A stretch of 64,000 nucleotides of DNA, from contig OZ220714.1 of NCBI GenBank assembly GCA_965116585.1, positions 2,309,247 to 2,373,246 on the forward strand, read 5' to 3'. Each line of letters begins with the position of its first letter. Position 1 is the stretch's first letter. The position numbers and the translations under genes were made by a program. Shown here in pieces: positions 37,632 to 51,194 of this stretch. The notes beneath the pieces are model-generated. The model was not told the DNA's origin. It saw nothing but the letters and a program-made list of their open reading frames with translations, and searched no databases. The stretch is from Gammaproteobacteria bacterium (lineage in GTDB: Bacteria > Pseudomonadota > Gammaproteobacteria > Eutrophobiales > Eutrophobiaceae).

Positions 37632-38300
37632 TCAACCCGGCTGTTCGGTGAAAAACGTCCTGATCTGGTTGGCCAGGGATTTGCAGGCGTTTTCCTGGAC
37701 GCGGGCCAGCAGCGGCACCGGGATGATGATCGCCGGCATGAACGAGGTGCCCTTGGTTTCCGCATTGATCTTGCCGGATAAGGCCAGTTCCTTGAAGTCC
37801 CAGATGCTGGCTTCGTAGTTAGCCTCGTCCTTCCAGTAGGCAAAACCGAAACAACCGCCACCACCCGGTCCCACCGCACAGGACACGGAGCCGGATTTGT
37901 CCGTTCTTTCGGTGGTGCCGTCTATCCAGACGAAATAACGCAGGTTGAACTCATTGAATTTCGAGGCAATAGCCGGGACTTGCGCCAATTTGCCCAGGTT
38001 TTTTACGTCCATGGGCGCGGTGCTGGTTTCAAAGTAGGGGTACATGCTGTCGATAAATTCCTGCTCCGGAATCACGTTGATGTCGGACTGTCCCTGCCGC
38101 AGCGATTTGCCCACACAACTGATGAAGTCATTTTCGGTCTCATAGCCGGAACTGTGACGCCGCCCCAGCACCACGATGGCCTCACCCCCGGCTATCAGCG
38201 CGGTCGGCGCCTCCCGGTACTCGTCGATCACCGTCGTGCTCTTGCACCCCGCCAGCAGGGCTGCAGCAAACAGGACAATGAGGGTTGTCAGGATTTTCAC
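37632..38300 (-). CDS. Lipoprotein, unknown function
   Basis: Signal peptide plus lipobox LLAGC. Confidence 0.55.
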   Translation of the reverse strand: MKILTTLIVLFAAALLAGCKSTTVIDEYREAPTALIAGGEAIVVLGRRHSSGYETENDFISCVGKSLRQGQSDINVIPEQEFIDSMYPYFETSTAPMDVKNLGKLAQVPAIASKFNEFNLRYFVWIDGTTERTDKSGSVSCAVGPGGGGCFGFAYWKDEANYEASIWDFKELALSGKINAETKGTSFMPAIIIPVPLLARVQENACKSLANQIRTFFTEQPG

Positions 38301-38342
38301 GCTTGCAGGCTACTTATGTTAATTATCCGCAGATTTGTTGAT

Positions 38343-38966
38343 TCATCTGCGGATATCAAACTGCTCCAGCCAGGCGCCGACGTCCGCTATTTTGGGGAAA
38401 CCCAGCGCAAACCGGGCGCCGGCGTCGCGCAGGGCCTGGTTGACGGCGGCGTTAAGGCCCTTGTCGCGGCTTTTCATGAACTCGGTGGATGATTTGCCGT
38501 AGCCGGTCACCGACCAGTTTGCGATGGTGTTGCCGTCCCGGTCGTAGAGTTCCATGTTGTACTTGACCCAGGCTTCGTAGAAGTCCGTTTTGGTTTCCGC
38601 AGGCAGGGCAAACTGCATCTCTGCAACGCTGGGCAGCAGCACTGCATCGACACCGGCATCCGTGTCCGTTGTTGTAACCTCCGTTGTTTCCTCGAACATG
38701 GAAGTGAAGATTTGCTGGAACAGGGCCAGGTGGGACGCGCCGCTGTCTATCTTCCACTCAGGCCGATCTTCTGAATCTTCCTCGTAAATGTAATTCCGCA
38801 ACTCATCACTATAGACCACGCCCATCTTCACCGGCATGCGGGAGACCACCGGACTGGGAATCTCGCTGTCCACCTTGAGTGACATGGACTGCTGGCAGGC
38901 AGTCAGGAACAATGCCAGGCCGATTGGGAAAATGAGTTTGCCAGTTATCTGCATTCGCATATTCAC
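38343..38966 (-). CDS. Lipoprotein, unknown function
   Basis: Signal peptide plus lipobox LTAC. Confidence 0.55.
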   Translation of the reverse strand: MNMRMQITGKLIFPIGLALFLTACQQSMSLKVDSEIPSPVVSRMPVKMGVVYSDELRNYIYEEDSEDRPEWKIDSGASHLALFQQIFTSMFEETTEVTTTDTDAGVDAVLLPSVAEMQFALPAETKTDFYEAWVKYNMELYDRDGNTIANWSVTGYGKSSTEFMKSRDKGLNAAVNQALRDAGARFALGFPKIADVGAWLEQFDIRR

Positions 38967-39005
38967 AGATTAACACAAATATAATCCGTACATTACGCAG
39001 TGGAC

Positions 39006-40010
39006 TTAAAACGCCCGGCCCGGTTCATTCAAACCTACATACGCCCCGCCGTTTTCGTGGGTGAGTTGGCGCATGAGCGCGGCGTAGTGTCTGTTGGTCA
39101 TCTGGAAATGTTCAGGGGCGCTGGACGGGACCGGGAAACCGACGGCGTGGATGCGTACTTTGGTTTTGCCGTCCCTGTCTTTCGGGTTGATGCGTTCTAC
39201 CGCATCCAGCACCTGCTTGATTGAACCGGAGAATTCGTCGCCGTACACGTAGATGCTGATCTTTTTTCCAGAGTCATAAAACGTGCGGATCGCCTGGGTA
39301 ATCCCTTCTACCGGGCTGCTGTTGCTGAAGGTGCGCCAACTGCGCAAGGTCCTGATGATAACCCGGCGCCGGCCTTCCGTATCGGGTATCCATTTGCGCC
39401 GGTACTGGGAAAACAGGTATTCACCCATATCGCTCATGATCTGTATGCCCTTCAGGCGGGGATAGACGTCCAGCGTGGTGATCAACTGCTTGATCATGTT
39501 TTCCCAGTGGCTGTTGACCATGCTGCCGGAGGTGTCGATGATGAAGATAACGTACTCGCTGTCCACCGGTATGCCGCCGATCAGGCCGGTCTGCACCCGG
39601 CCTGTCTGGGCCAGCAGGCGTTTCATCTCTTCCGTCAGGGTTTGCAGGGCCAGTTCAAACTCACCCCTCATGATCTCGCCCACGGCCGAATCGTCGCGCA
39701 CGCTGTTATAGCGCAACTCCTCCTGCACCAGTTCCGCCTCCAGGCGCGCCACCCGCTGTTCCCATTCGGAACGCTGCTCGTGTTTGGCGTTCAGTTCCCG
39801 GTCCAGGATTTTTGCCTCGCCGCGGATTTCAAACAACTGGATCTGCAATTCCCTCACGATACCGTGCAGGGATTCCTCGGCGCGTTCCAGAATGGGACTG
39901 TCCCCGGTTTTGGCAATCAGCAACAACAGGATGATGGCGCCGAAGCCGCAGGTTATGACGTCCAGGAAGGAAATGCTGAACGCTTCGTTTTCCCGCCGCT
40001 TTTTCCTCAT
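39006..40010 (-). CDS. Membrane protein: ExbD/TolR-like N-terminal anchor, coiled coil, C-terminal VWA domain
   Basis: N-terminus FSISFLDVITCGFGAIILLLLI resembles the ExbD/TolR TM segment and keeps the conserved Asp. DxSxS MIDAS-like motif (IIDTSGSM). It is a paralog of the upstream gene. Confidence 0.55.
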   Translation of the reverse strand: MRKKRRENEAFSISFLDVITCGFGAIILLLLIAKTGDSPILERAEESLHGIVRELQIQLFEIRGEAKILDRELNAKHEQRSEWEQRVARLEAELVQEELRYNSVRDDSAVGEIMRGEFELALQTLTEEMKRLLAQTGRVQTGLIGGIPVDSEYVIFIIDTSGSMVNSHWENMIKQLITTLDVYPRLKGIQIMSDMGEYLFSQYRRKWIPDTEGRRRVIIRTLRSWRTFSNSSPVEGITQAIRTFYDSGKKISIYVYGDEFSGSIKQVLDAVERINPKDRDGKTKVRIHAVGFPVPSSAPEHFQMTNRHYAALMRQLTHENGGAYVGLNEPGRAF

Positions 40011-41092
40011 GGCCAGTCCTTGCTGGGGATCAGGAACGCGCCGTTGGTACTCATGGCCAGACGCCAGTAGGCGAAGGCTGCGTCTCGGTCGCCTTCCAGC
40101 GGCGTCAGTATCACGTTAAGCGGCACACCGCCGGGCACTTGTGCCACCGCCCGGGTAAACAGGTCCAGACGTTGTTTGCCGGTGATGGTCGCCCCCCTGA
40201 TCCGCTTTGAGCCCTGGGTGGGCAAGCCGTCGGTAATCAGGTACACGTTGTCGGGCCTGGGCCGCAGTTTGCTGATGGCTGCAAACGCTCGCTCCAGGTT
40301 GGTACCGCCTTCCGGCACGACCTTGGCCAGCGCTTCTATCATCGAGTTCAACTCCGCCTTGTTGTTGACGTCCAGCCACTTACCGGCCAGGCCCGGCAGC
40401 AATGCGCGGGTTTCCGTGTTGAACACGTAGATCTGGTATTGGCTGCCCCGGGGAAACCGGGCCGTGAGCCAGTCTACCGTTCTCAGGGTCTGCACCCATT
40501 TTTCCGCTCGACGCCTCACGCCATCACGTTCATTGCGAAGGATGATGACATTTGTAATGCTCTTATGCATCATACTGGCAGAAACATCCAGCAATAACAG
40601 GATGCGTTTACCGTCCAGTTTCAGCCCGGTCAGGTACTCGCGGTTGCCCTCGCCGACCAGGCGTCGCACATCGTTGCCGCGGTCCTTCAGGTCTTCCTGC
40701 AACTGCTTCTTCTGTTCTTCCAGTTGCTTGATATTGAGCTTCAATTGGTCCAGTTCCACGGTGCTGGTGGTTTCCGACAGTTGTTCGATCAGGGAGCGTG
40801 TCTCCTCAATTTTCGCCATGATGCGCCGTGCCATGCCCTGCGCCACGACCAGTTCTTCATCAAGTTCCGAGATGGTGTTGCGGGTTTTGGCCAGGTTCTG
40901 CCTGCCTGCCAGTATTTCCTCCTCCAGCAACATCACTTCGGAGGTCTGGTCCCGGTTATCCACGGGTATGGGTGCGTTGGTGTCAACGTTGTGCTTGATG
41001 ATGAGGAACAACAGCACTACCGAGCCGAAGCCGCAGGACATGATGTCCAGGAAGGACAGGCTGAAAGGGGTGAGCAGTCTGCGATTGCGCAT
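40007..41092 (-). CDS. Membrane protein: ExbD/TolR-like N-terminal anchor, long coiled coil, C-terminal VWA domain (paralog)
   Basis: N-terminus FSLSFLDIMSCGFGSVVLLFLI; LLLDVSASM MIDAS-like motif; 4-bp overlap with the downstream gene. Confidence 0.55.
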   Translation of the reverse strand: MRNRRLLTPFSLSFLDIMSCGFGSVVLLFLIIKHNVDTNAPIPVDNRDQTSEVMLLEEEILAGRQNLAKTRNTISELDEELVVAQGMARRIMAKIEETRSLIEQLSETTSTVELDQLKLNIKQLEEQKKQLQEDLKDRGNDVRRLVGEGNREYLTGLKLDGKRILLLLDVSASMMHKSITNVIILRNERDGVRRRAEKWVQTLRTVDWLTARFPRGSQYQIYVFNTETRALLPGLAGKWLDVNNKAELNSMIEALAKVVPEGGTNLERAFAAISKLRPRPDNVYLITDGLPTQGSKRIRGATITGKQRLDLFTRAVAQVPGGVPLNVILTPLEGDRDAAFAYWRLAMSTNGAFLIPSKDWP

Positions 41093-42405
41093 TAGCGCAA
41101 CACCTTGATCAGGGCAAATTCACGCTCCGAGTGAGCGAAACTGATAATGTCGCCTGGCTTTAGCGCCGCGCCGCGCTCACTGGCCTGTCCGTTGATATAA
41201 ACAACACCATTGGCAACCAGGGACAGGATTGCCGCGGCGCCGTTCAGGGACACCGAGCAAAGCGCATCCTGTGTGCCGGGTTGCGCCGGCGCGCCGTGCG
41301 CGCACAGGTATAAGGGTTCCGGCCCCAGCGGGTACGCCTCGGCGCCGGCCAGGACATGGGTTGGCCCGGCTTCAGGTTGTTGTGTCAGGCTTGCCGGCGC
41401 ACTGAAGCCGATGGCGGGGTCGGCGGCGGCCTCAAGCCGGGTAACAAAATACACCTCTTCTTCCGCATCACTGCCTTCCCGCACATAGCCCATACAGCCG
41501 GCGCAGGCGGCGCGCGGGTCCAGAACCTCGACCTGCCGGTGCGCGCTTGCCAGGTGCTCGGTGAACGCGGGCAGTCCGGCCAGACGCGGGTGCAACAGTG
41601 CCATCCGGTCGGCATCAACGGCAGCGCTGATTTTGCCATACAAGGGTCGCAGTGCTTCCACCAGCCGCTCCCGGCTTACCCGGGCCTGGTAACGGGCCTG
41701 CTCGAACTCAATATCGACCCGCGCATCGGCCGCCCGTGCCAGGTCGTGCAGGCATTGCGCCATGCGGTTGCATAGTGCCTGTTCCGTTACCGCGTGGTGC
41801 AGGGGGTCGAAACGGGACTGCTGTATGAACAGATCGGCGACGTGGTTCACGCATTTATCCTGAATTTCCAGCAGACCGACCTCGTTGATGACCTTCACTG
41901 CCGTGCGTTGCACCGTATCAGAGACGTCCAGGGAAGTGATCACGGTGTGATGCAGGTGGATGTCCAGGTGCTCATACCTCCCGGCGCCGGCCGTTGCTGC
42001 GGTGGCCGCCACCGCACTGTCCACCAGGCCCACCGGGGTAAACGGAGAGGCCTCCATCAGCCCGAGCAGCAATGCCAGTTGCTCCGTGGTAAAGCTGCCG
42101 GGCACCGCCATGGCCACCTGCTCCACCCCATCCGCCAATTCATGCAGGGACAGCAAATGCGCATAAGCCAGGTCGGCATTATGCCGGGCCAGTTTTGAGC
42201 GGTGTTTGAAATTATCCTGGTTCAGGCCGCTCCAGAAGCGGCTGAAAGTGTTGCGCGGGTCAAGATGGGTAGATTCCAGCGCTGCCTGCCCCAGCTCGAT
42301 CCGATCTTCCCTGAGCACGGCAATGCCGGGACTGCTCGCCACGACCTCACCGGCCTGGAAGATCTTTAATTCGGCATCGTTGAGTTCTATGACCGCGGCA
42401 TTCAT
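41092..42405 (-). CDS. Hsp70/actin-like (ASKHA-fold) N-terminal domain fused to a C-terminal FHA domain
   Basis: N-terminus AVIELNDAELKIF...IAVLREDRIELGQAAL...DPRNTFSRF resembles the DnaK N-terminal phosphate-1 region. C-terminus ...VYINGQASERGAALKPGDIISFAHSEREFALI is FHA-like. Confidence 0.5.
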   Translation of the reverse strand: MNAAVIELNDAELKIFQAGEVVASSPGIAVLREDRIELGQAALESTHLDPRNTFSRFWSGLNQDNFKHRSKLARHNADLAYAHLLSLHELADGVEQVAMAVPGSFTTEQLALLLGLMEASPFTPVGLVDSAVAATAATAGAGRYEHLDIHLHHTVITSLDVSDTVQRTAVKVINEVGLLEIQDKCVNHVADLFIQQSRFDPLHHAVTEQALCNRMAQCLHDLARAADARVDIEFEQARYQARVSRERLVEALRPLYGKISAAVDADRMALLHPRLAGLPAFTEHLASAHRQVEVLDPRAACAGCMGYVREGSDAEEEVYFVTRLEAAADPAIGFSAPASLTQQPEAGPTHVLAGAEAYPLGPEPLYLCAHGAPAQPGTQDALCSVSLNGAAAILSLVANGVVYINGQASERGAALKPGDIISFAHSEREFALIKVLR

Positions 42406-42413
42406 TTACCCGC

Positions 42414-43211
42414 CTACCTTACCTGCAAATGCCGTAACAGGTTGACGTCGCAGTAGTGTTGCGTGTCCAGCACCAGTCGTTCCTGGAGCAACTGTAACTG
42501 GTGCATCAGGAACATGATGAAAATACTGATGATCAAGGCAATGAAGGTGGAGTTGAAAGCCACCCCCAGGCTGACGGTGACCCCCACGATATCGCCTTCC
42601 ACCGCGCGGTGGGCCTGCCCCAGGGCCTCGCCGATACCGCGCACCGTGCCGATAAAGCCGATGGAAGGGATGGCCCAGATGATGTACCTGATCATGGAAA
42701 GTTCGGAGTCCAGCCGGTCCGATTCGGTCTCGCAGACCTCCCTGATGGCCGAGGACACGTCCTGGATATCCGCAGTGGAACCGAAGCGTTGCAACGCCGC
42801 CTGCAGGGCGCGCGGCAACAGGTATTCGCGTTCATCCTGCGCCAGCGCCTGTAACGGCCGGACGTACTGCCGGGTGTCCTCCGGCAGAATAGTGGCGCCG
42901 GGCGGCAACTCCAGCAGGGAACGGCCCAGCAAACGTCTTTCAGCCAGCGCCACCCTGGCCTTCAGGCCGATAATGGCCACGACCCACAAGGCCAGGATAA
43001 AACAGGCCTCCTGCTCGAAGTCCTTGATCACGATGAAAACCGAACGTTGCACCTCGTAGCTTTCCCCGGCCTCCTGTTGCAGGCGCTGCTCCTCCAGCAA
43101 CGCATCCGCATTGGGGCGCACCACCGCCACATACAGCGCGTGTACGATGATCATCGCGGCGATCAGCGTGAACAACTGGTAGAAAAAATCTGTGGTCTGG
43201 TTGAATTTCAC
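42414..43211 (-). CDS. MotA/TolQ/ExbB-family proton channel protein
   Basis: 265 aa with three TM helices. ...IIWAIPSIGFIGTVRGIGEALG...VTVSLGVAFNSTFIALIISIFIMF matches the ExbB/TolQ C-terminal TM pair. Confidence 0.7.
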   Translation of the reverse strand: MKFNQTTDFFYQLFTLIAAMIIVHALYVAVVRPNADALLEEQRLQQEAGESYEVQRSVFIVIKDFEQEACFILALWVVAIIGLKARVALAERRLLGRSLLELPPGATILPEDTRQYVRPLQALAQDEREYLLPRALQAALQRFGSTADIQDVSSAIREVCETESDRLDSELSMIRYIIWAIPSIGFIGTVRGIGEALGQAHRAVEGDIVGVTVSLGVAFNSTFIALIISIFIMFLMHQLQLLQERLVLDTQHYCDVNLLRHLQVR

Positions 43212-43426
43212 TATATGTCCACCGGGAACTCGATAGGATAATCTTCAGAAACCTCCTCCGTCGGATCAAAGGTTTCCGGTGCGCCGTCCGCTATCTCCTC
43301 TTCTGCCTGCTGTGCACCCGTTTCCTGCGACCCCTGCACAGCCTCGGGTTCGGCAACCACAGGGGCCTCCTGCGCCGCCACCGTAACAGCAGCAAAGATG
43401 ACAAGAAAAAAGGCTATTCTATACAT
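43211..43426 (-). CDS. Small secreted acidic protein (71 aa)
   Basis: Signal peptide MYRIAFFLVIFAAVTVAAQ followed by an E/D-rich stretch; stop overlaps the motA-like start. Confidence 0.4.
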   Translation of the reverse strand: MYRIAFFLVIFAAVTVAAQEAPVVAEPEAVQGSQETGAQQAEEEIADGAPETFDPTEEVSEDYPIEFPVDI

Positions 43427-43456
43427 GCGGAAGTTTGTATTGTATCACTGCCCCCT

Positions 43457-45529
43457 TCAATCCGCATACCGGGCAATCCTGAAGCCCAGGTCATTCCTGG
43501 CTTCGCTGTCGTAGTCGCGGTAGGACAGGCGTAGTTCGGTGACGCTGCTGTGTCTCCAGCTTGCGCCGCGGATGACGTGCAGGTCACCGCGGTCCGGCCC
43601 CATGGGGTCCAGCTCGGTTTTTTTATCGGCACTGACTACCACGTCGTAAACGTCATTGACCCATTCTGCCACGTTGCCGCCCAGGTCGAAGAGGCCCTTG
43701 TCGTTCGGCGCGAAGCTTCCCACTGGTGCGCTTACGACATGGCCGTCATCGTACTCGCCGATGATGCGCCCCAGGAGGCTTGCGGCTTTGCGGTCGGCGT
43801 AGTTGCCGCTGTTGTTGGCGGGCGGCATCTCTGCGCCCCAGGGGAACTTGAGGGGCTCGCCTGTCCTGCCGGTGCGCGCGGCCCAGGCCCATTCTGCCTC
43901 GGTGGGCAGGCGGTAACCGTCTGCTGTTTTATCAAATCCCGTTATTTTGCCGTTCTCCTCGATATAGAACGGCGCCAGGGATGCCTCCCTGCTCAACCAG
44001 TTGCAATAACTCGCGGCCTGCTCCCAGGTCAGGTTCACCGCGGGCTGGTTGTCTCCGTTCAGGCTGTTGCCCTGTACCGTACCGGAGGAAAAATCCTTGT
44101 TGAACAAACGATACTCCCGGTTTGTGACTTCCTTCAAACCCAGGTAGAACGGGCGCGTGAGTTGCACGTTACGGATAGTCTCGTTGGCCCGGCGCCCCGG
44201 TTCCCGGCGCGAGGCGCCCATGGTGACTGTGCCCGGGTAAAACAACTTTAACGCCTGTCCACCCGGGGCGCTGCTAACCGGTTTCAGGGCTTCCAGTTTT
44301 GCCTGTTTGACGGTCTTCAGGGTCACGTTCAACTGCTGTTCCACGCCGGGCAGGGGCGTGAGGGTGGTCTTGTGTTCCACGTAGCCCTGTTTGCGCACCT
44401 CGATCCGGTGCTCACGGGTGGATAACAGCAGTGCGCCGTCAGTGACCGCGGCCAGTGCCCCGTCAACGTACACCGAGGCGTCGGCCGGTTCGAGCTTCAC
44501 TGCCACGCGCACCAACTCAGGCTCCAGGTTGATGGATAACCTCTTCTGCTCACCCGAGCGTGCCTGCGCCGACCTGGATGCCGGCTGGTAGCCCTGTTTG
44601 AACAGGCGGATTTGCGCGCGCACACCCGGCGTCAGGGGAACTTCCAGCGGCGTCAGTCCCAGGAAATTGCCATTCAGGGTGGCATTCGCCCGCGCCGGGT
44701 CGGAGACCAGGAACAAAGTGGCATCCGCCGGTTCCAGCTTGACGTCATCAATGGTCTGCGGCTCTCCCGCGACCACAGTAATAGTGTCCTGCCAGGCCTT
44801 GTAGCCGTTTGCCCTCACCCTGATCTCATGTTTGCCTTGCAGCAGGTCCACCGTGAGCGGGGTTGTGCCGAGCAGGTCAGCGCCGCTGAATACCTGCGCG
44901 TGCGCCGGTGTCGAGGCCAGGCTGAGCGCCGCCCAGGCCGGTTTCAGTTCGGCATCGAGGATTTGTTCCTGGCCCAGTCCTTCCAGTATTACTTGTTCAC
45001 GCCAGGGTAAATAACGCGCCGCCTTGATCTCCACAAGATATTCTCCCGGAGGGAGGTCCCTGAGCGTCAGCGGCGTTTCCCCCCTGGCGACGCCGTCCAC
45101 GAACACCGGCGCGCCCGTGATGACGCCGCTGCCTATGCGCAGGTGTCCGGGCAGCTTCTCCAGCCGGTAAATATAGTGCTGGGCCGCGGTATCGGTGACG
45201 AGCAGGGTTTCCTGCAGTGGCTGGTACCCCTGGGCAGTCAGCGTCAGGTCATAAGCCCCTGGGCGGACCAGGTGGCGATTGCCCAGCTTCAGTTGCAGCA
45301 CACCGGAGATATCGACTGTGGCGGATAACGGTTCCGTTTCAATATACACTGCCCTGGCAGTCAGCATGAACCAGGCACAGAACGCGCCGAGGGCGAGTAA
45401 TGCGAAAACCAGGCACAGGCGCAGATTGATCTTGATTGACCAACCTGGTTTTGTTGACGAAAGCGGCTCGAATCTTGCCGCTTCAATCCTGGCTGCCGTG
45501 TTGGTCGGATGATTTATCTTTTCTGCCAA
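43457..45529 (-). CDS. Membrane-anchored protein with multiple PEGA domains and a C-terminal formylglycine-generating-enzyme (FGE/SUMF1)-type domain
   Basis: Repeated ...GxYxLxxxKxGY...R blocks are PEGA-like. The C-terminus GGNVAEWV...RGASWR...GFRIARY carries FGE-sulfatase motifs. Confidence 0.65.
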   Translation of the reverse strand: MAEKINHPTNTAARIEAARFEPLSSTKPGWSIKINLRLCLVFALLALGAFCAWFMLTARAVYIETEPLSATVDISGVLQLKLGNRHLVRPGAYDLTLTAQGYQPLQETLLVTDTAAQHYIYRLEKLPGHLRIGSGVITGAPVFVDGVARGETPLTLRDLPPGEYLVEIKAARYLPWREQVILEGLGQEQILDAELKPAWAALSLASTPAHAQVFSGADLLGTTPLTVDLLQGKHEIRVRANGYKAWQDTITVVAGEPQTIDDVKLEPADATLFLVSDPARANATLNGNFLGLTPLEVPLTPGVRAQIRLFKQGYQPASRSAQARSGEQKRLSINLEPELVRVAVKLEPADASVYVDGALAAVTDGALLLSTREHRIEVRKQGYVEHKTTLTPLPGVEQQLNVTLKTVKQAKLEALKPVSSAPGGQALKLFYPGTVTMGASRREPGRRANETIRNVQLTRPFYLGLKEVTNREYRLFNKDFSSGTVQGNSLNGDNQPAVNLTWEQAASYCNWLSREASLAPFYIEENGKITGFDKTADGYRLPTEAEWAWAARTGRTGEPLKFPWGAEMPPANNSGNYADRKAASLLGRIIGEYDDGHVVSAPVGSFAPNDKGLFDLGGNVAEWVNDVYDVVVSADKKTELDPMGPDRGDLHVIRGASWRHSSVTELRLSYRDYDSEARNDLGFRIARYAD

Positions 45530-45548
45530 GATACACCGCCTGTGGATG

Positions 45549-47117
45549 TCAGTTCCCCAGCGCTATCCGTTCACCGCTGCTGACCACTACCGGTTCCATG
45601 GCTTTATCCGGGTCAACAAAAAACTCCACGCGCACATCGCGATAGCCGTCACGGTGGCCGACTGCCACGTAACGGCCGGGACGCAGCGACAGGACTTTAC
45701 TGGTGAAAGAGCCTAGTTCGCCCACCTTGTACAGGGTGACCCGGGTCTGGTTGTCGGAGCGCAGCTCTACCGTGACCGGGGTTGCAGCCAGGGTGAGCAG
45801 GCGCACGAGTTGTTCCAGTTGTGCGGATAAAATCGGACCCGGATCCGGCAAGCTCTGGATTGTATTGAGAAAACTGGTCACGTCATCGTATACGGCCCGG
45901 TCAAACAGGCGCTCCGGCTGTGCCAGTATCTCTTCCAGCCGGGTGTGTATCTGCGCGCGCAATGCCGCGCGTTGCTTACCTTCCAGGGCATTGCCCAGGC
46001 TGCTGTTCAGTTTCAGGGCGGCTTCATAAGCAGCGACGGCGCCGCGCCAGTCTTCCTGGTGCTCTGCGCTCTGCGCCTGCTTGAGCGCGCTATTGATCTG
46101 CGTTGAGGTGATACGATGTGTGGCCTGCTCGATGCCGTCACGGGCCGAGCGTGAGCGGGGCTTCAGCTTGAGCGCCTGCTTGAACGCTTCCCGCGCCTGT
46201 TCGTGGCGTTCCTGTTCCAGCAACCGGAAGCCGGAAGACATGGCCAGGTTGAAGGCGTTATCGTTGATGCGGGCTTTGCTCAGCTCAAGCTGTTGCCGGG
46301 CGCGCGCCGCATGCGAGTCGATATCCAGGGCCTGTTGATATACGTCCCGGGCCTGTTCGGGCTTGCCGTCCCGCAACAAGGCATCACCCTGCTCGATCAG
46401 CGCCATCACCTCGGTGAGGCGCCCCGCCCGTTCCATGCCCAGCAGGGCATCCCGGTCAATGGAGTCGATGGCGAGGGCGATACTGAACGCGCTACCGGCC
46501 GCATCGGCATCACCGGCATCCAGGGCCGCGTGGCCGGCTTCCATGGTATCGGCAAACAACTGTTCCACACCTTCCAGCAATCCGTTCAGGATGTCCAGGG
46601 CGGCGGCATAGTGGTCGTGCGCCTGGGAAAAATTCTGGCGGCTGTACTCCGCGTCTCCCGACCGGGCGTGTTCCAGCGCTTGCTCGTACTCCTTCCTGCC
46701 CCATACGCTTACTCCCCGTTCCTCCAGGGCTTTCTGTGCGTCCAGCAATTCCTGCAGGATTGCCTGGCTGTCCTTACGCACGGAGAACTGCTGCGCCTTG
46801 CTCCAGGGGGCAGCGTCCGGCGCGGTTGCGCGCGGCGCGGAGGGTGGCGTTGTCCCTGCGGCCCGCGGCGGCCTGGTAGCGGGCGTAGCGGGGTCGTTCT
46901 GGCTCGTGTTACCGCCGGATTCGATGACCGGGGACGGAATCCAGCGGGGGAGCAAGAGGAAGACAACGCTCACGGCGCACAGCACTGCAGCGCCGCCCAA
47001 CCATAACCCTGGTCGCCCAGGCAAACGCCTGCGTTTCGACTCCTTGCCGCCGGTAGCGGCAGTGAGGTCAACCTCAGCCGGCTTTATCGGGACAAAACCA
47101 GGCTCTTTGGATCGCAT
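45549..47117 (-). CDS. TM-anchored TPR-repeat protein with a C-terminal PEGA-like domain
   Basis: Pro/Ala-rich linker, multiple A...Y..AL...P TPR-like helices, C-terminal ...VTLYKVGELG...LRPGRYVAVGHRDGYRD. Confidence 0.55.
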   Translation of the reverse strand: MRSKEPGFVPIKPAEVDLTAATGGKESKRRRLPGRPGLWLGGAAVLCAVSVVFLLLPRWIPSPVIESGGNTSQNDPATPATRPPRAAGTTPPSAPRATAPDAAPWSKAQQFSVRKDSQAILQELLDAQKALEERGVSVWGRKEYEQALEHARSGDAEYSRQNFSQAHDHYAAALDILNGLLEGVEQLFADTMEAGHAALDAGDADAAGSAFSIALAIDSIDRDALLGMERAGRLTEVMALIEQGDALLRDGKPEQARDVYQQALDIDSHAARARQQLELSKARINDNAFNLAMSSGFRLLEQERHEQAREAFKQALKLKPRSRSARDGIEQATHRITSTQINSALKQAQSAEHQEDWRGAVAAYEAALKLNSSLGNALEGKQRAALRAQIHTRLEEILAQPERLFDRAVYDDVTSFLNTIQSLPDPGPILSAQLEQLVRLLTLAATPVTVELRSDNQTRVTLYKVGELGSFTSKVLSLRPGRYVAVGHRDGYRDVRVEFFVDPDKAMEPVVVSSGERIALGN

Positions 47118-47187
47118 TTCTCACCGGCCAGCGCAATCATCACGCAGGTCTCTTCCAGCGACCTGATGAAACATGCCCACCGGCCTG

Positions 47188-48381
47188 TCATTGTCCGGTG
47201 TCAACAGCCGACCCGGTTTCCGTCGCATGGATCTCTTTCAGGATCCGGCGCCATTGACCGTATTGCTCATTCACCGTACCCGACAGGGTGACCGTGCGGT
47301 CTTCCAGTTCTATGGAGTGTGGTTGTATTTCCGAATCCAGCGATGCGGAAATTTCTTCCAGGGCTTCCACGTGGATTTTCGCTTCCTCGCGCTTTTGCAG
47401 GCCGCTCTGGATCGCCGTGGCGCCGGCGCCGATGCCTACCCAGCCGGCCGTGCGCGCAGTCCTGCTGTCAACCCCTTGCGCCAGGATGCCGGCCAGCACC
47501 GCCAAGGCGCCGCCGATCAGGCGGGTATTGGCTTCGGACTTGACTTCCCGCAATGCTTGGCTCTCCAGGTAAAAGGCTTCACGCCACTCCCGGTACGGCG
47601 CCTCCATCTGGTTGACGAAAGAGGCGTAATACTGTTGCAGCGTATCGACAAAGATATAGTCTCGCTCCCGGATCTGGCGCATCTGTTGCATGGCCGGGTC
47701 ACCCTTGGCGGGCAGGCGCTTGACCGCGTAGCGTCCCTTCTCATTCACGGTCAGGTAGTCGTGGAATAATTCGGGTGAGAAGTCCCGGGCAAATTTCAAT
47801 TCGGCGACGGTTCTTATCGTCCTGATCTCAGTGGCGCTGAGCAGGCTGCGATAAGCCAGCATATCGTTCGCGATCTGGTTATAGATCTTCTGAAACGGTT
47901 CGCGGTTGTTGGAGGTGCGGTCGTCGTATGAATACTTGCCGGCCACTTCCGTGTATTTCTTGCTGAACCAGCGCTTACCCGTGGCATCCTCCACGGTCAC
48001 GCGCAACCACAGGTTCTCGCCGTCAGATTTCAGGATCTCACCGTCCGCCCACACGTCCATTTCGCTGAGCCGGTCCGGTATCACCCGTACCACGCCCCAG
48101 TTGCCGGTGTGTTGCAGGGTTTCCATCAGTTGGTATGGGACGAAGCGCGCCTCCGCGGCGCGGATTTCGGGAAATACACCCTCTTCCTCGACGCTGATGG
48201 CGTCGGTGCCGGGATTGAAGATGCCGACCCCCACGTCCAGCAATAACTCTTCCGGTGTTGCCTCCGTTTCCAGGGCCACCTGCTCGTAACTGGACGTTTT
48301 TACGGTGGTGGTGTTACAACCGGCCAGACTGAAACACAGCGCCACAACCACCGCAATCGACTTGATATGGCTTGTTCTCAT
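47188..48381 (-). CDS. Lipoprotein, unknown function
   Basis: Signal peptide plus lipobox LAGC; 397 aa. Confidence 0.5.
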   Translation of the reverse strand: MRTSHIKSIAVVVALCFSLAGCNTTTVKTSSYEQVALETEATPEELLLDVGVGIFNPGTDAISVEEEGVFPEIRAAEARFVPYQLMETLQHTGNWGVVRVIPDRLSEMDVWADGEILKSDGENLWLRVTVEDATGKRWFSKKYTEVAGKYSYDDRTSNNREPFQKIYNQIANDMLAYRSLLSATEIRTIRTVAELKFARDFSPELFHDYLTVNEKGRYAVKRLPAKGDPAMQQMRQIRERDYIFVDTLQQYYASFVNQMEAPYREWREAFYLESQALREVKSEANTRLIGGALAVLAGILAQGVDSRTARTAGWVGIGAGATAIQSGLQKREEAKIHVEALEEISASLDSEIQPHSIELEDRTVTLSGTVNEQYGQWRRILKEIHATETGSAVDTGQ

Positions 48382-49310
48382 CTTAAGTCTCGTTTGTATT
48401 TACGATATTCGTCCCACAGTTTTTCCCTTAGCTCGGGGTCTTGTTCCTTCATGGCGGCCTCACGCAACTGGCGCGCGATGATATCGTCATTCCGGGCATC
48501 GGCCAGGTCAGGCGGCACCTGGCTGTGGCTGGGGGTTGGGATGTTCCCCTCTCCCTGCACGGATATGGGGTCGCTGTCAACCAGTGCGGTTTGCATGGGT
48601 TCGTTGGCTGCCCCGTCCAGGGAGTCGCTGGCTGCGGGAAAAGCATCCTGTTCGGCAAATCCGCCCCCGCCCTGCTGGTCTGCCCGTTCACTGTTGGCCT
48701 GCTGCTCACTCAGCATCACCCGGTCAAATTCGGCAAAACCCTGTTCCAGTTCCTCGTCCAGAACCTGCTTCTTCTCGGCCGCGGTTACTGCCGGAGCGCC
48801 GGCGCCGGTCCCAGTCGCTGAGGGCGCAGCGCCGGACCCGGCCGCATCTGCTCCCTGCTCTCCGGCCGCGGGCCTGCTCTCCAATGCCTCCAAGGCTGCA
48901 GCCAGTATTTCATCCTCGGTTTGCTCCCGTCCGCCGGCGCCGACTGGTGTTGCCCCACCGGGTTGTTGCCGGGCGCCGGCCTGGGCCGGTGCGGAAGCGC
49001 CGGCGCCGCCGGCAGAAGTTGTACCGGATTGCGGCGCCGGCAGGGAGACCGTGCCCGGAGTGGGGGCAGGCGTGCCCGGCATATCGCCTGAACCTGACCC
49101 GGAGGACGGCAACCCGGGCATGCCCGGCGCCTCCACTTGAACGGACGGGCCTGATGATCCCGGTGAACCCGGCGCTCCGGGTGACCCTGCCGGTGGCGGA
49201 GAACCGGGGGCGCCCGGCGCCCCTGAGGAACGGGTGACCGGCGTGGTATTGCAGCCGACCACCAACGCCAGGACGAAGATCACGACCGGAAATTGTAACG
49301 GCCTTGCCAT
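48378..49310 (-). CDS. Lipoprotein with collagen-like G-A/S-P-G low-complexity repeats
   Basis: MARPLQFPVVIFVLALVVGC lipobox; GAPGAPGSPPPAGSPGAPGSPGSSGP repeats. The start is assigned to the ATG at 49310; the longer ORF runs to 49412. Confidence 0.5.
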   Translation of the reverse strand: MARPLQFPVVIFVLALVVGCNTTPVTRSSGAPGAPGSPPPAGSPGAPGSPGSSGPSVQVEAPGMPGLPSSGSGSGDMPGTPAPTPGTVSLPAPQSGTTSAGGAGASAPAQAGARQQPGGATPVGAGGREQTEDEILAAALEALESRPAAGEQGADAAGSGAAPSATGTGAGAPAVTAAEKKQVLDEELEQGFAEFDRVMLSEQQANSERADQQGGGGFAEQDAFPAASDSLDGAANEPMQTALVDSDPISVQGEGNIPTPSHSQVPPDLADARNDDIIARQLREAAMKEQDPELREKLWDEYRKYKRDLR

Positions 49311-49408
49311 GATAGTCGCCATTATAGCACAGGGTCTGGTTGGCAGGCCAACTACTGCCGAGGGAATCTCCATGATCCTGGCGCAATTGTTTTCGCTTCC
49401 CTCACTCA

Positions 49409-50326
49409 TCAATATTCAGAGGCGAGGCGTAACTCATGCAGCCTTTTTCTCCTTCTCTGTGCCGTCTCACCCAGTGCGTCCGCCACACCGGCGACCAGGA
49501 GTTCCATCAGCGCCGCGATACTCACGACAGAAGTAACCATGGCGGGGCCTTCTACTTCCACCGGTAATACGCAGTCTGCAACGGCCGCAATGGGAGACAG
49601 GCGGGGATCGGTAATCAGGATTATCTCCGCCCCGTTACGGTTTGCCTGCCTGGTAAAATCGGCGGTGTCAGCTTGATACGGCCTGATATCAATGACTACC
49701 ACCACGTCCCTGCTATTGATGTCCAGCACGTATTCGCTGCTCCAGGTATGGACAGGTCTGCCGAACCCGATGCCCGGCCTCAGTTCGTGCAAGCGTAGCG
49801 CAAGATATTGCGCCAGGAAATCCGTAGACCGGCCACCTGTGCCGGTGACTCTTGACTTCCGGTTGGAGAGCAGCCCAATGGCATGCTCAAATTCGGACAC
49901 AGGCAGCCGGGCCAGGCTGTCAAGTAATTTATCCTGGCACATCCTGGCAAAACCCTGTGCCAGTCCTTCATCCCTGACCTCGCCAGCCCTGTCTTTATGC
50001 AAATCATAAGCATGGTTTTTTCGTTGGCTGATCTCCCCCAGCAGGCGCTCCTGAAAATCCATGTAACTGGTAAAACCCAACCGTTTGATAAACCGTAATA
50101 CAGTAGGACCACTGACATCGCTCAGTGCTGCCAGCCTGGCAACGGATAACAATCCGGCACAGGGATAATCGGACAGGACTATTCTCGCGACGCGCTTTTC
50201 TGCACGCGTCATGACTGATAGTTCTGTAGCTATGTAATGACTTAACAACTTCTCAACCATGATACTTCTGGTAGGGGCGAAAGCACCTACCGGAATTAGT
50301 CCCGTGGCATTCCTCAAAGTTCCCAC
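49409..50326 (-). CDS. RpiR/MurR-family transcriptional regulator (HTH + SIS domain)
   Basis: ...AEKRVARIVLSDYPCAGLLSVARLAALSDVSGPTVLRFIKRLGF... is an RpiR HTH; a SIS domain follows. The true start may be the internal MVEKLL. Confidence 0.7.
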   Translation of the reverse strand: MGTLRNATGLIPVGAFAPTRSIMVEKLLSHYIATELSVMTRAEKRVARIVLSDYPCAGLLSVARLAALSDVSGPTVLRFIKRLGFTSYMDFQERLLGEISQRKNHAYDLHKDRAGEVRDEGLAQGFARMCQDKLLDSLARLPVSEFEHAIGLLSNRKSRVTGTGGRSTDFLAQYLALRLHELRPGIGFGRPVHTWSSEYVLDINSRDVVVVIDIRPYQADTADFTRQANRNGAEIILITDPRLSPIAAVADCVLPVEVEGPAMVTSVVSIAALMELLVAGVADALGETAQRRRKRLHELRLASEY

Positions 50327-50414: not shown

Positions 50415-51194
50415 ATGATTAAACAGTTCCCGGCGCTATGCCTGCTGCTGATGCTCACGTTCAGCCACAGTTTTGCCGCGCCGTTCAGTTATACCTGGCG
50501 CATTGAAGATATTGCCAAAACGAATACCGGCACTGTCGAGCTGCGCGACAAGAACGGCCGTCTGTTGAAGCGCATCGACTCAAAACAGATGATCTACCTG
50601 TACTCGGTGATGCAGGCCCTGGAGGAAGTCTCGGAGCTGCGCTCGGAACTGCTCATCACCGACGGCAAGCAACCCAATGCGTTTGCCACCAAAGGCATGG
50701 CGGAACTGGTGCCCACAGAAGCAAGCGACAAGGATCAAGCGGAGGCCGGGGCGCAGGCGGCCAGCAGGCAGGGCAAGGCGCTTGCAGACGCCAAGCCGAT
50801 AGACGAGGACAATGCGGTGGAAATCAATATTGTCGGCATCAATTTTGCCATGCTGGACCTGCTCGGCCTGGACGTGCACATGGCCGCCGCCCTCATCGGC
50901 CATGAACTGGGGCATTTGAAGCTGAACCACGGCGAGGACCATAAAGCCCAGCGCCGAACCGACATCCGCACTGCCAGCAACACCCGCTACAGCCGTGATA
51001 ATGAGCGCGAGGCGGACTACCTGGGCGCTATCTGGGCGGTGGAGGCCGGTTATGACCCGGCAGGGGCGGTGCGCCTGCAGGAGTTGCTGTACAAGAAGAC
51101 CAAACACCTGTCAGGAGGCTTTTCCGGTTCACACCCGTCGTCGATTGAACGCGTCACGAAACTGAAGTCCCTGGCCCGCCGGCTGTCTCAGTAG
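50415..51194 (+). CDS. M48-family zinc metalloprotease (secreted)
   Basis: Signal peptide; HEXXH motif (IGHELGHLKLNH); downstream EREADYLG. Confidence 0.75.
   Translation: MIKQFPALCLLLMLTFSHSFAAPFSYTWRIEDIAKTNTGTVELRDKNGRLLKRIDSKQMIYLYSVMQALEEVSELRSELLITDGKQPNAFATKGMAELVPTEASDKDQAEAGAQAASRQGKALADAKPIDEDNAVEINIVGINFAMLDLLGLDVHMAAALIGHELGHLKLNHGEDHKAQRRTDIRTASNTRYSRDNEREADYLGAIWAVEAGYDPAGAVRLQELLYKKTKHLSGGFSGSHPSSIERVTKLKSLARRLSQ

Follow-up and report, generated by a model that had tools for sequence, protein, structure and literature searches.

A 64,000-nt stretch of contig OZ220714.1 from a gammaproteobacterium of the Eutrophobiaceae (positions 2,309,247 to 2,373,246; this whole stretch is the window referred to below) carries on its minus strand, between window positions 37632 and 49412, a cluster of genes for 11 proteins, among them a MotA/TolQ/ExbB-family channel subunit and two membrane-tethered vWA proteins. 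This gene set is a real and widely conserved envelope operon. We read it, with a probability of about 60%, as encoding a trans-envelope complex that is powered by an unconventional 5:2-type ion-driven motor. The first-pass annotation of this DNA had proposed a stator-like channel with vWA partners as part of a larger envelope machine, and that core reading is supported.

The ORFs (open reading frames) between these limits form an unbroken minus-strand run in which gaps and overlaps are short: there are overlaps of 4 bp at 48378/48381 and at 40007/40010, and of 1 bp at 43211 and at 41092. Coordinates, strand and junctions are thus as first annotated. Listed from the upstream end, and with domain calls from Pfam and NCBIfam, the products are:

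48378-49310, minus strand: lipoprotein D, lipobox VVGC
47188-48381, minus strand: lipoprotein C, 397 aa, lipobox LAGC with Asn at +2
45549-47117, minus strand: TPR protein, 522 aa, bitopic, with a transmembrane (TM) segment at 38-56 (Pfam TPR_2, E 1.6e-16)
43457-45529, minus strand: PEGA/FGE protein (FGE, formylglycine-generating enzyme), 690 aa, a bitopic inner-membrane protein with one TM segment at 38-56, five Pfam PEGA domains and an FGE-sulfatase domain
43211-43426, minus strand: small secreted acidic protein, 71 aa, conserved C-terminus F.PTEE(I/V)SED...FPVDI
42414-43211, minus strand: MotA/TolQ/ExbB-family channel subunit, 265 aa (Pfam PF01618, E 1.6e-15)
41092-42405, minus strand: ASKHA/FHA-like protein, 437 aa, cytoplasmic, with a predicted fold of the Hsp70 nucleotide-binding domain (NBD)/actin type over residues ~1-315 and a degenerate FHA-like beta domain over ~350-437
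40007-41092, minus strand: vWA1, 361 aa, with an N-in TM helix bearing Asp16, a periplasmic coiled coil of ~100 residues and a vWA domain
39006-40010, minus strand: vWA2, 334 aa, with a TM helix bearing Asp17, a coiled coil and a vWA-like domain
38343-38966, minus strand: lipoprotein B, 207 aa, lipobox LTAC with Gln at +2; orphan family
37632-38300, minus strand: lipoprotein A, 222 aa, lipobox LAGC with Lys at +2; orphan family

Conservation of the cluster was followed by tblastn, with these 11 proteins and the product of an adjacent rpiR gene as queries, against 82 loci from other species; all counts of loci given below are from this comparison. The shared order, lipoD-lipoC-TPR-PEGA/FGE-small-MotA-ASKHA-vWA1-vWA2-lipoB-lipoA, recurs in essentially all of the 82 loci that are not cut by a contig end. 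It is retained down to 30% identity of the 437-aa ASKHA/FHA-like protein (which served as the marker of the cluster), and also in the distant loci L083, L084 and L086, so that the check on neighbourhood conservation suggested with the first-pass annotation comes out in its favor. The marker family is uniform in length and carries no annotation. Relatives of the 437-aa protein are present in at least 419 species genomes (in a scan of one genome per species), and an exhaustive profile search yields 1857 clusters at 50% identity, of which 1031 score E<=1e-30. The carriers among the relatives listed are mostly uncultured Gammaproteobacteria, the others including Porticoccus (one of them the cultured P. 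litoralis DSM 25064, locus L070), Pseudohongiella, Arenicellales and Cellvibrionales; the name prefixes of several of the metagenome-assembled genomes are ones that we take to denote sponge-metagenome bins.

The GC content of the cluster (0.56-0.62) is like that of the remaining window (0.56-0.63), apart from a lower-GC segment at ~12-28 kb. The same chromosomal flanks recur in close relatives, and the fact that housekeeping neighbors are common to close relatives only fits a chromosomal, vertically inherited locus. A search of plasmids with the MotA-like protein (tblastn) has an unrelated partial Rhizobium sequence as its sole match. A scan for promoters and terminators finds 7 promoter-like sites, as against 3.7±1.7 in shuffled sequence, with terminators as frequent as in the shuffles and none at the upstream end of the operon.

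The product of 42414-43211 is presumed to be the pentameric 'A' subunit of the motor. Its gene is the most conserved in the cluster (56-97% identity; 79 of 82 loci), and in all 79 loci that carry it the vWA pair is exactly one gene away. Its best NCBIfam match is TolQ (E 2.3e-5, below cut-off); a single-sequence search of PDB sequences with this protein gave nothing useful. Two threonines, T188 and T221, are invariant in the family profile and fall on T145 and T178 of E. coli TolQ in a weak profile alignment (E 0.28). These TolQ residues we take to be lumen (ring) threonines. The family assignment and the conservation of both ring threonines bear out the MotA/ExbB-like channel that had been proposed. 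Four hydrophobic segments are discernible by eye, of which a hydropathy scan put three above threshold.

The two vWA proteins are presumed to be the 'B' subunits of the motor: vWA1 as one, and vWA2 as a second that forms a heterodimer with it. They are paralogs (BLASTP E 9e-12, 22% identity), both members are present in 80 of the 82 loci, and the 4-bp overlap of their genes suggests translational coupling. When residues 1-45 of both paralogs are aligned (40 sequences), six positions are invariant, F14, L15, D16, C20, G21 and G23, embedded in the TM-helix motif SFLD(V/I)xxCGFGA. The N-terminus ahead of the Asp is rich in Lys and Arg, which by the positive-inside rule implies that it faces the cytoplasm and that coiled coil and vWA domain are periplasmic. 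The DxSxS motif of the metal ion-dependent adhesion site (MIDAS) is invariant in both proteins. In vWA1 the Thr and Asp positions are also kept and the site is complete (D169, S171, S173, T264, D288); in vWA2 the invariant motif reads DTSGS and the remaining MIDAS positions diverge. Sequence models of vWA reach only sub-threshold scores with these proteins (for vWA2, Pfam VWA at E 1.7e-3), and a vWA1-family profile run against the PDB matches coiled coils only. The C-terminal vWA fold is confirmed by structure prediction, which was run on database homologs.

Models of ExbD, TolR and MotB match none of 12 proteins in Pfam or NCBIfam. The first-pass annotation had these two paralogs replacing ExbD/MotB while keeping an ExbD-like TM segment. 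The invariant Asp, the vWA fold and the lack of any ExbD, TolR or MotB gene speak for the replacement; the similarity to ExbD does not extend beyond analogy. The helix would be 'ExbD-like' in its position and chemistry.

A motor core of this kind has been described in silico. TPH-vWA/TolQ-like motors (TPH, trans-pore helix) were proposed in 2025 in 'Origin and Evolution of Bacterial Periplasmic Force Transducers' (Mol Biol Evol, section 8 and Fig. 4c,d; PMC12204202) on the basis of genomics, synteny and AlphaFold 3 (AF3) models, with Idiomarina loihiensis as exemplar and Proteobacteria as the range of the family. In that account vWA genes co-occur tightly with tolQ homologs, without tolR or exbD and mostly as heterologous pairs; a TolR/ExbD-like trans-pore helix bears a conserved Asp and is placed by AF3 inside a TolQ-like pentamer with a ring of Thr around it; the function is given as unknown (PMC12204202). 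The replacement of TolR/ExbD by vWA proteins as the dimeric partner is accordingly not new as a proposal. The cluster in the window resembles these motors in having a tolQ-like gene linked to a heterologous TM-tethered vWA pair with no tolR, exbD or motB, and in its trans-pore helix Asp, its Thr ring, its vWA fold and the absence of an SHLS motif. Judged by description, and not by comparison with the Idiomarina sequences, the locus would share every feature stated for the TPH-vWA family. It differs from the published text, which deals with the motor core only, in that the ASKHA/FHA-like, PEGA/PorK-like, TPR and small acidic proteins, the four lipoproteins, an M48 protease and the kinase variants described below go unmentioned there (the words 'PEGA' and 'sulfatase' have 0 occurrences in the text of PMC12204202). 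In the literature searched for ExbB/TolQ/MotA together with vWA, FHA, PEGA, FGE or PorK, no description of the full operon was found. What is new here is the full accessory set, the small protein, the M48 linkage, the PorK-like FGE domain, the Hsp70-like fold, and a series that runs from kinase to pseudokinase to no kinase. The first-pass annotation could not assign the gene set to Tol-Pal, TonB, flagellar, Agl-Glt, Zorya or type VI secretion systems (T6SS): it is indeed not Tol-Pal, Ton or Zorya, and it has no T6SS genes, but its motor core does have that 2025 precedent.

The mechanism that we envisage is as follows. A heterodimer of vWA1 and vWA2 would serve as an 'axle' enclosed by a TolQ-like pentamer, and protonation and deprotonation of their Asp residues would drive relative rotation. 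The ~100-residue stalks could carry the vWA heads across the periplasm, over an estimated ~15 nm, and coiled coils and heads would pass torque or tension to partners gripped through the MIDAS metal site. The ligand so gripped would be acidic, perhaps the ...SED...FPVDI C-terminus of the small protein or else one of the four lipoproteins. The PorK-like domain on its stalk of five PEGA domains would provide a periplasmic scaffold together with the TPR protein, and the ASKHA/FHA-like protein might dock, as adaptor or regulator, either on the motor or on the short peptides with which the bitopic partners begin, somewhat as PilM binds PilN. For the M48 protease, processing or quality control of some component is the probable role. 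Our best guess at the output is energized handling or tethering of outer-membrane lipoproteins, that is, envelope maintenance. The case for a motor draws on the position and chemistry of the vWA helices, on the lack of any other partner for the channel, on strict co-occurrence, and on the published AF3 models for such proteins.

A number of points weigh against this reading. Among solved structures the channel profile matches TolQ weakly (again E 0.28), and the monomer model of vWA1 is of low confidence in the TM segment and the stalk. With a TM-segment profile no ExbD, TolR, MotB or ZorB chain comes up in the PDB at E<=10, so that sequence homology of the 'B' helix to ExbD/TolR/MotB is not demonstrated and the TM similarity that had been noted does not hold up at that level. 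We infer the stoichiometry, the formation of a complex and its dependence on the proton-motive force (PMF) alike. The sorting of the lipoproteins to the outer membrane is read from their +2 residues only, and the ASKHA domain, to judge from its loops, may not be an ATPase. Neither an outer-membrane beta-barrel nor a peptidoglycan-binding domain was detected among the cluster proteins, which leaves the far end of the force path without a candidate.

Among the nearest characterized machines are TolQR-TolA and ExbBD-TonB. These share with the operon an A subunit of PF01618 (nearest to TolQ in our case), a Thr ring, a partner helix with an Asp, an N-in bitopic partner and, presumably, coupling of the inner-membrane PMF to the outer envelope. 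On the other hand, the operon has two paralogs as B subunits, with a coiled coil and a vWA domain in place of the TolR periplasmic domain, and its channel appears to have four hydrophobic segments rather than three. The absence of a PF02472 or MotB-type B subunit sets it apart from all of the canonical 5:2 motors (MotAB, ExbBD, TolQR). No match to TolA, TonB, Pal, TolB or a TonB-dependent receptor was found among the cluster proteins, and there is no TM partner with an SHLS/His motif: His is absent from the vWA trans-pore helix, which has no such motif, and neither the PEGA/FGE nor the TPR protein has a His in its TM helix.

Zorya ZorAB is likewise a MotAB-like complex with a long coiled coil and no flagellar link, and the first-pass annotation counted envelope defence among possible functions, next to adhesin handling and gliding; of the three, defence is the least likely. 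A Zorya-type anti-phage system, in which the MotAB-like complex senses envelope perturbation, would draw on the 5:2 complex of MotA/MotB type, again with a long coiled coil, that is found in Zorya (PMC12505986), and on the recurrence of FGE-type and vWA domains in conflict systems (PMC7159879). We nevertheless think it highly improbable. In Zorya the long tail is cytoplasmic and belongs to the A subunit while ZorB binds peptidoglycan, whereas here the coiled coil is periplasmic and belongs to the B subunits. PADLOC defence models give no match to ZorA or ZorB and none to the MotA-like protein, the only matches being coiled-coil noise (JetC and LmuB, E>=6e-4), and the cluster has no conserved gene for a nuclease or effector. 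A GC content like that of the chromosome, recurring flanks and a gene order stable across orders of Gammaproteobacteria are also unlike mobile defence islands.

The combination of vWA and TPR proteins in a membrane operon might suggest instead a Bat/aerotolerance-type operon, or an accessory set of a Tad pilus, to which the MotA-like gene would be incidental. Such an assignment was named at the outset as one to watch for, and it did not materialize: there is no match in the cluster to MoxR, DUF58, BatD, Tad or a pilin, a BatC match (E 8e-5) is far below cut-off, and BatB ranks 30th among vWA folds. Moreover, no member is more conserved than the MotA-like gene, which also shows translational coupling inside the operon. 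We consider this assignment barely credible, and return to the partners of the presumed motor.

The PEGA/FGE gene is found in 78 of the 82 loci. Its product consists of a short cytoplasmic N-terminus with a conserved I.P..F.P motif, the TM segment, five PEGA domains (E 2.8e-44) and an FGE-fold domain (FGE-sulfatase, PF03781, E 9.5e-40) that is PorK/GldK-like; the PEGA-repeat protein with an FGE-type end that had been annotated is therefore what Pfam finds. The nearest solved relatives of the FGE-fold domain are PorK (E 3e-20) and then true FGEs (E 1e-17). At the position of the FGE RGGSxxC...C motif, where the catalytic Cys pair of FGEs lies, the protein reads RGASWRHSSVTELRLSYRD, without a Cys, and there is none in the family consensus either. 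A catalytic FGE is rejected on the absence of this pair.

A motor with a long periplasmic dimeric stalk, encoded together with a PorK-like non-catalytic FGE-fold domain, is reminiscent of PorL/PorM and PorK/PorN from type IX secretion systems (T9SS). This raises the possibility that the operon specifies a T9SS-like or gliding-like machine for secretion or for surface proteins, with the TolQ-like/vWA motor in the PorL/PorM (GldL/GldM) role and a PorK-like ring turned so as to move or release surface proteins or adhesins. The closer relationship of the FGE-fold domain to PorK than to FGEs, next to a MotA/ExbB motor with a long stalk, is what such a machine would predict, and in the gliding of Myxococcus, Tol-like motors act together with vWA adhesins (CglB; PMC9946355). 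However, the GldK model TIGR03525 gives the PEGA/FGE protein 121 bits against a cut-off of 350 (E 7e-35), and the PorK-like domain follows a TM anchor and five PEGA domains and is not lipidated, in a different phylum. Pfam and NCBIfam detect no homologs of PorL, PorM or PorN and no translocon or cargo genes in the cluster: Sov/SprA, PorV, an outer-membrane beta-barrel and sorting-domain cargo are all missing. Nor is a T9SS known in Gammaproteobacteria, to which the hosts belong. A T9SS-like function is accordingly a distinctly unlikely one.

The TPR gene is present in 69 of the 82 loci, the remainder being truncated contigs. Its product has a conserved cytoplasmic N-terminal peptide (GF..I.PA...LT), the TM segment, a Pro-rich linker, the TPRs, and a conserved C-terminal beta domain that is PEGA-like. 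The TPR part of the earlier designation of this protein as TPR/PEGA stands; for PEGA there is no Pfam match, only this PEGA-like motif at the C-terminus. The protein is the ortholog of kinase-TPR proteins found in rare relatives of the cluster.

The 437-aa ASKHA/FHA-like protein is presumed to be an adaptor or regulator at the cytoplasmic face of the motor. Its Hsp70-like domain is identified at the level of fold, by structure prediction. Pfam HSP70 does not match the window protein and matches one of 68 relatives, at E 0.18; a single-sequence search of PDB sequences returned nothing useful; and hhalign of the family against the NBD of E. coli DnaK gives a probability of 2%, which is not significant. 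In ATPases of the ASKHA fold the hairpin loops bear Gly-rich phosphate-binding motifs. Here, as located by predicted secondary structure and not by superposition, these loops read LND (in IELNDAE) and DIHLHHT, and the lack of recognizable Gly-rich phosphate loops makes conventional ATPase activity doubtful. PilM-PilN of type IV pili and similar ASKHA-fold adaptors of inner-membrane platforms are among the closest known systems.

The C-terminal tail of this protein has no Pfam FHA match at E<=1. Among 68 relatives FHA is the family most often matched (7 of 68, best E 1e-4), and the FHA-like model of YscD of the type III secretion system is matched by 2 of the 68. The orthologs in loci L083 and L087 carry Pfam FHA, and alignment with these two points to homology of the tail of the window protein to FHA. 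The tail lacks the phosphothreonine-binding residues (Gly-Arg, Ser-x-x-His and Asn), which just 2 of 258 full-length members of the family have in canonical form. The idea that the window organism has a canonical FHA phospho-reader is rejected. Thus, the Hsp70-like part of the first-pass description of this gene is supported as a fold, and its FHA part weakly, as a degenerate domain.

The rare relatives add a historical dimension. In L083 (4088-11374) the TPR ortholog bears an N-terminal cytoplasmic Ser/Thr kinase that looks active (motifs VALK, HRDLKASN and DFG), and the periplasmic part of the window TPR protein aligns with residues 299-769 of this kinase-TPR protein (E 5e-59). The FHA domain of the L083 ASKHA/FHA-like ortholog has the canonical GR...SRVH...TFVN residues, and the PEGA-FGE ortholog of the same locus has a cytoplasmic N-terminal extension of ~130 residues that is FHA-like by eye (there is no Pfam call). 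In L087 (10001-18416) the kinase is degenerate (HGG, DLG) and the FHA domain semi-canonical; the cluster there falls into two parts, a motor module, MotA-ASKHA-vWA1-vWA2, and a convergent one with PEGA-FGE, the kinase-TPR gene and, further on, two genes for proteins of ~410 aa. L068 (4538-6862) and L079 (4661-6880) have pseudokinases, and FHA-like tails that are non-canonical. The simplest reading of these sequences is that a phospho-dependent contact may once have joined the cytoplasmic part of the TPR protein to the FHA domain. In most lineages, including that of the window, the contact would now be constitutive or lost, if the direction of change is as we infer. Docking of the ASKHA/FHA-like protein may be a relic of Ser/Thr-kinase control; one rare relative keeps both an active kinase on its TPR protein and a canonical FHA domain.

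These relatives also bring the operon close to the threonine phosphorylation pathway of the T6SS. PpkA of that pathway has a periplasmic vWA domain, and COG1262 is the FGE-type COG. TagR belongs to COG1262 and TagQ to the outer-membrane lipoproteins (PMC13584744). The rare relatives of the cluster have the same parts as TagQRST-PpkA-Fha1: a membrane-bound Ser/Thr kinase whose sensor domain is periplasmic, an FHA protein, a periplasmic protein of FGE type and a lipoprotein of the outer membrane. It could be supposed that the operon is a module of the same kind, in which periplasmic FGE-like, TPR and vWA domains and the outer-membrane lipoproteins detect damage or other perturbation of the envelope and signal to the FHA protein, the channel being a regulated ion gate. 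The shared domain vocabulary would then be accounted for, as would the active kinase, the canonical FHA domain and the possible second FHA-like segment of L083, and the pseudokinases of L087, L068 and L079. We regard a signaling module as unlikely nonetheless. The window and more than 95% of the family members examined have no kinase; Pfam and NCBIfam find no kinase, phosphatase or T6SS match in the window cluster; and the phosphothreonine-binding residues are, as stated, very seldom canonical. The window cluster does have a MotA-family channel, which the T6SS pathway lacks, and it is the channel (identical at up to 97% of positions), the Thr ring and the Asp helices that are most conserved, which points to ion-coupled mechanics as the core. 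Nor is a T6SS or transcription-factor gene that might serve as output conserved beside the cluster.

The ORF of the small secreted protein lies in a 246-bp gap (43211-43457) that the first-pass annotation had left, and its stop overlaps the start of the MotA-like gene by 1 nt. It has its counterpart at the same position in 63 of the 82 loci (orthologs are called, for example, in L001 and L002) and belongs to no Pfam family. Its C-terminal peptide is ...SEDYPIEFPVDI, and the protein is a possible MIDAS ligand or periplasmic connector.

The four lipoproteins that had been annotated all have lipoboxes, with a residue other than Asp at +2 in each, and are presumed on that basis to be outer-membrane proteins. 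Lipoprotein A is the best conserved of them (72 of 82 loci, 44-93% identity). Five Cys are invariant in it, C18, C61, C140, C149 and C205 (the lipidated one and four more), as is the GGGGCxG core of a GPGGGGCFGF motif. Lipoprotein B is found in 76 loci; profiles of both A and B (32 members each) match neither Pfam nor the PDB. The same holds for a profile of lipoprotein C (67 loci, 42-90% identity), which has an internal Gly/Ala-rich hydrophobic hairpin at ~288-330. Lipoprotein D (63 loci) has no Pfam or NCBIfam family. A long, unconserved linker rich in Pro, Gly, Ala and acidic residues leads in this protein to a conserved C-terminal helix, DDDIVARQLREAAMKE.DPELREKLWDEYRKYK, and only the last ~40 residues are conserved. 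The collagen-like G-x-P stretch to which attention had been drawn lies in unconserved low complexity, and was rejected as a functional feature. The lipoD ORF is open as far as a TTG at 49412 and is probably over-extended; the start is likely the ATG at 49310. With this start, the rpiR stop and lipoD are ~100 nt apart and a TGcTATAAT element (49329-49321) precedes the ATG, and the overlap of lipoD with rpiR is, if the ORF is over-extended, apparent only.

A wider proposition, which we put forward tentatively and with the odds somewhat against it, is that the whole set of 12-13 genes may constitute a single integrated envelope nanomachine of a class not described before, and one that is common among marine and symbiotic Gammaproteobacteria. 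In it a rotary TolQ-like/vWA-axle motor would be coupled to a PorK-like periplasmic scaffold and outer-membrane lipoproteins, and would be governed from the cytoplasm by an Hsp70-fold/FHA pseudo-enzyme descended from a kinase-controlled ancestor. What the machine does would differ from the outputs of Tol-Pal, Ton, flagella, T9SS and Zorya, and might be, for instance, energized remodeling or release of outer-membrane lipoproteins or surface structures. Ion-driven 5:2 motors (MotAB, ExbBD, TolQR, GldLM, ZorAB) are the only known route by which energy is conveyed beyond the inner membrane of diderms, and each new set of partners of such motors has revealed a new process of the cell envelope. Hundreds of species have the predicted vWA-axle motor within a strictly conserved operon of roughly a dozen genes. 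If a function is found for it, this would be a new PMF-coupled envelope process; otherwise the operon stands as a well-defined orphan system. It offers concrete components to test, namely Asp16 and Asp17, the ring Thr, the MIDAS sites, the acidic C-terminal peptide and the M48 protease, and a cultured host in Porticoccus litoralis DSM 25064.

Two neighboring genes were considered as members of the system:

49409-50326, minus strand: RpiR-type regulator, with HTH_6 and SIS domains
50415-51194, plus strand: periplasmic M48 zinc metalloprotease, with a signal peptide and an HELGH motif (Pfam Peptidase_M48, E 3.4e-12)

The rpiR gene, which had been placed at the head of the operon, lies beside the cluster in 2 of the 82 loci only, and is therefore a neighbor and not a component; its candidacy as regulator of the system was rejected on this count. 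The M48 protease is BepA/LoiP-like (below cut-offs). Homologs adjoin the cluster in 34 of the 82 loci, either just downstream of lipoA or divergently upstream of lipoD, and one is also directly downstream in the distant locus L084; this recurrence makes a functional link probable, with the protease as a probable accessory component. In the window its gene is divergent, with rpiR between it and the operon. In 40 of the 82 loci (L001, 1829-3148) an additional gene, for a TPR protein of ~440 aa, precedes lipoD on the same strand, upstream of it; neither the window nor its closest relatives have this gene. Where the M48 gene stops, another plus-strand gene begins (51194-53908), for a 904-aa protein with a C-terminal PD-(D/E)XK nuclease domain, which is found near the cluster in 7 close relatives only and is thus probably unrelated. 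Elsewhere in the window, between about 12000 and 28000, the GC content falls to 0.46-0.53, and this segment may be horizontally acquired.

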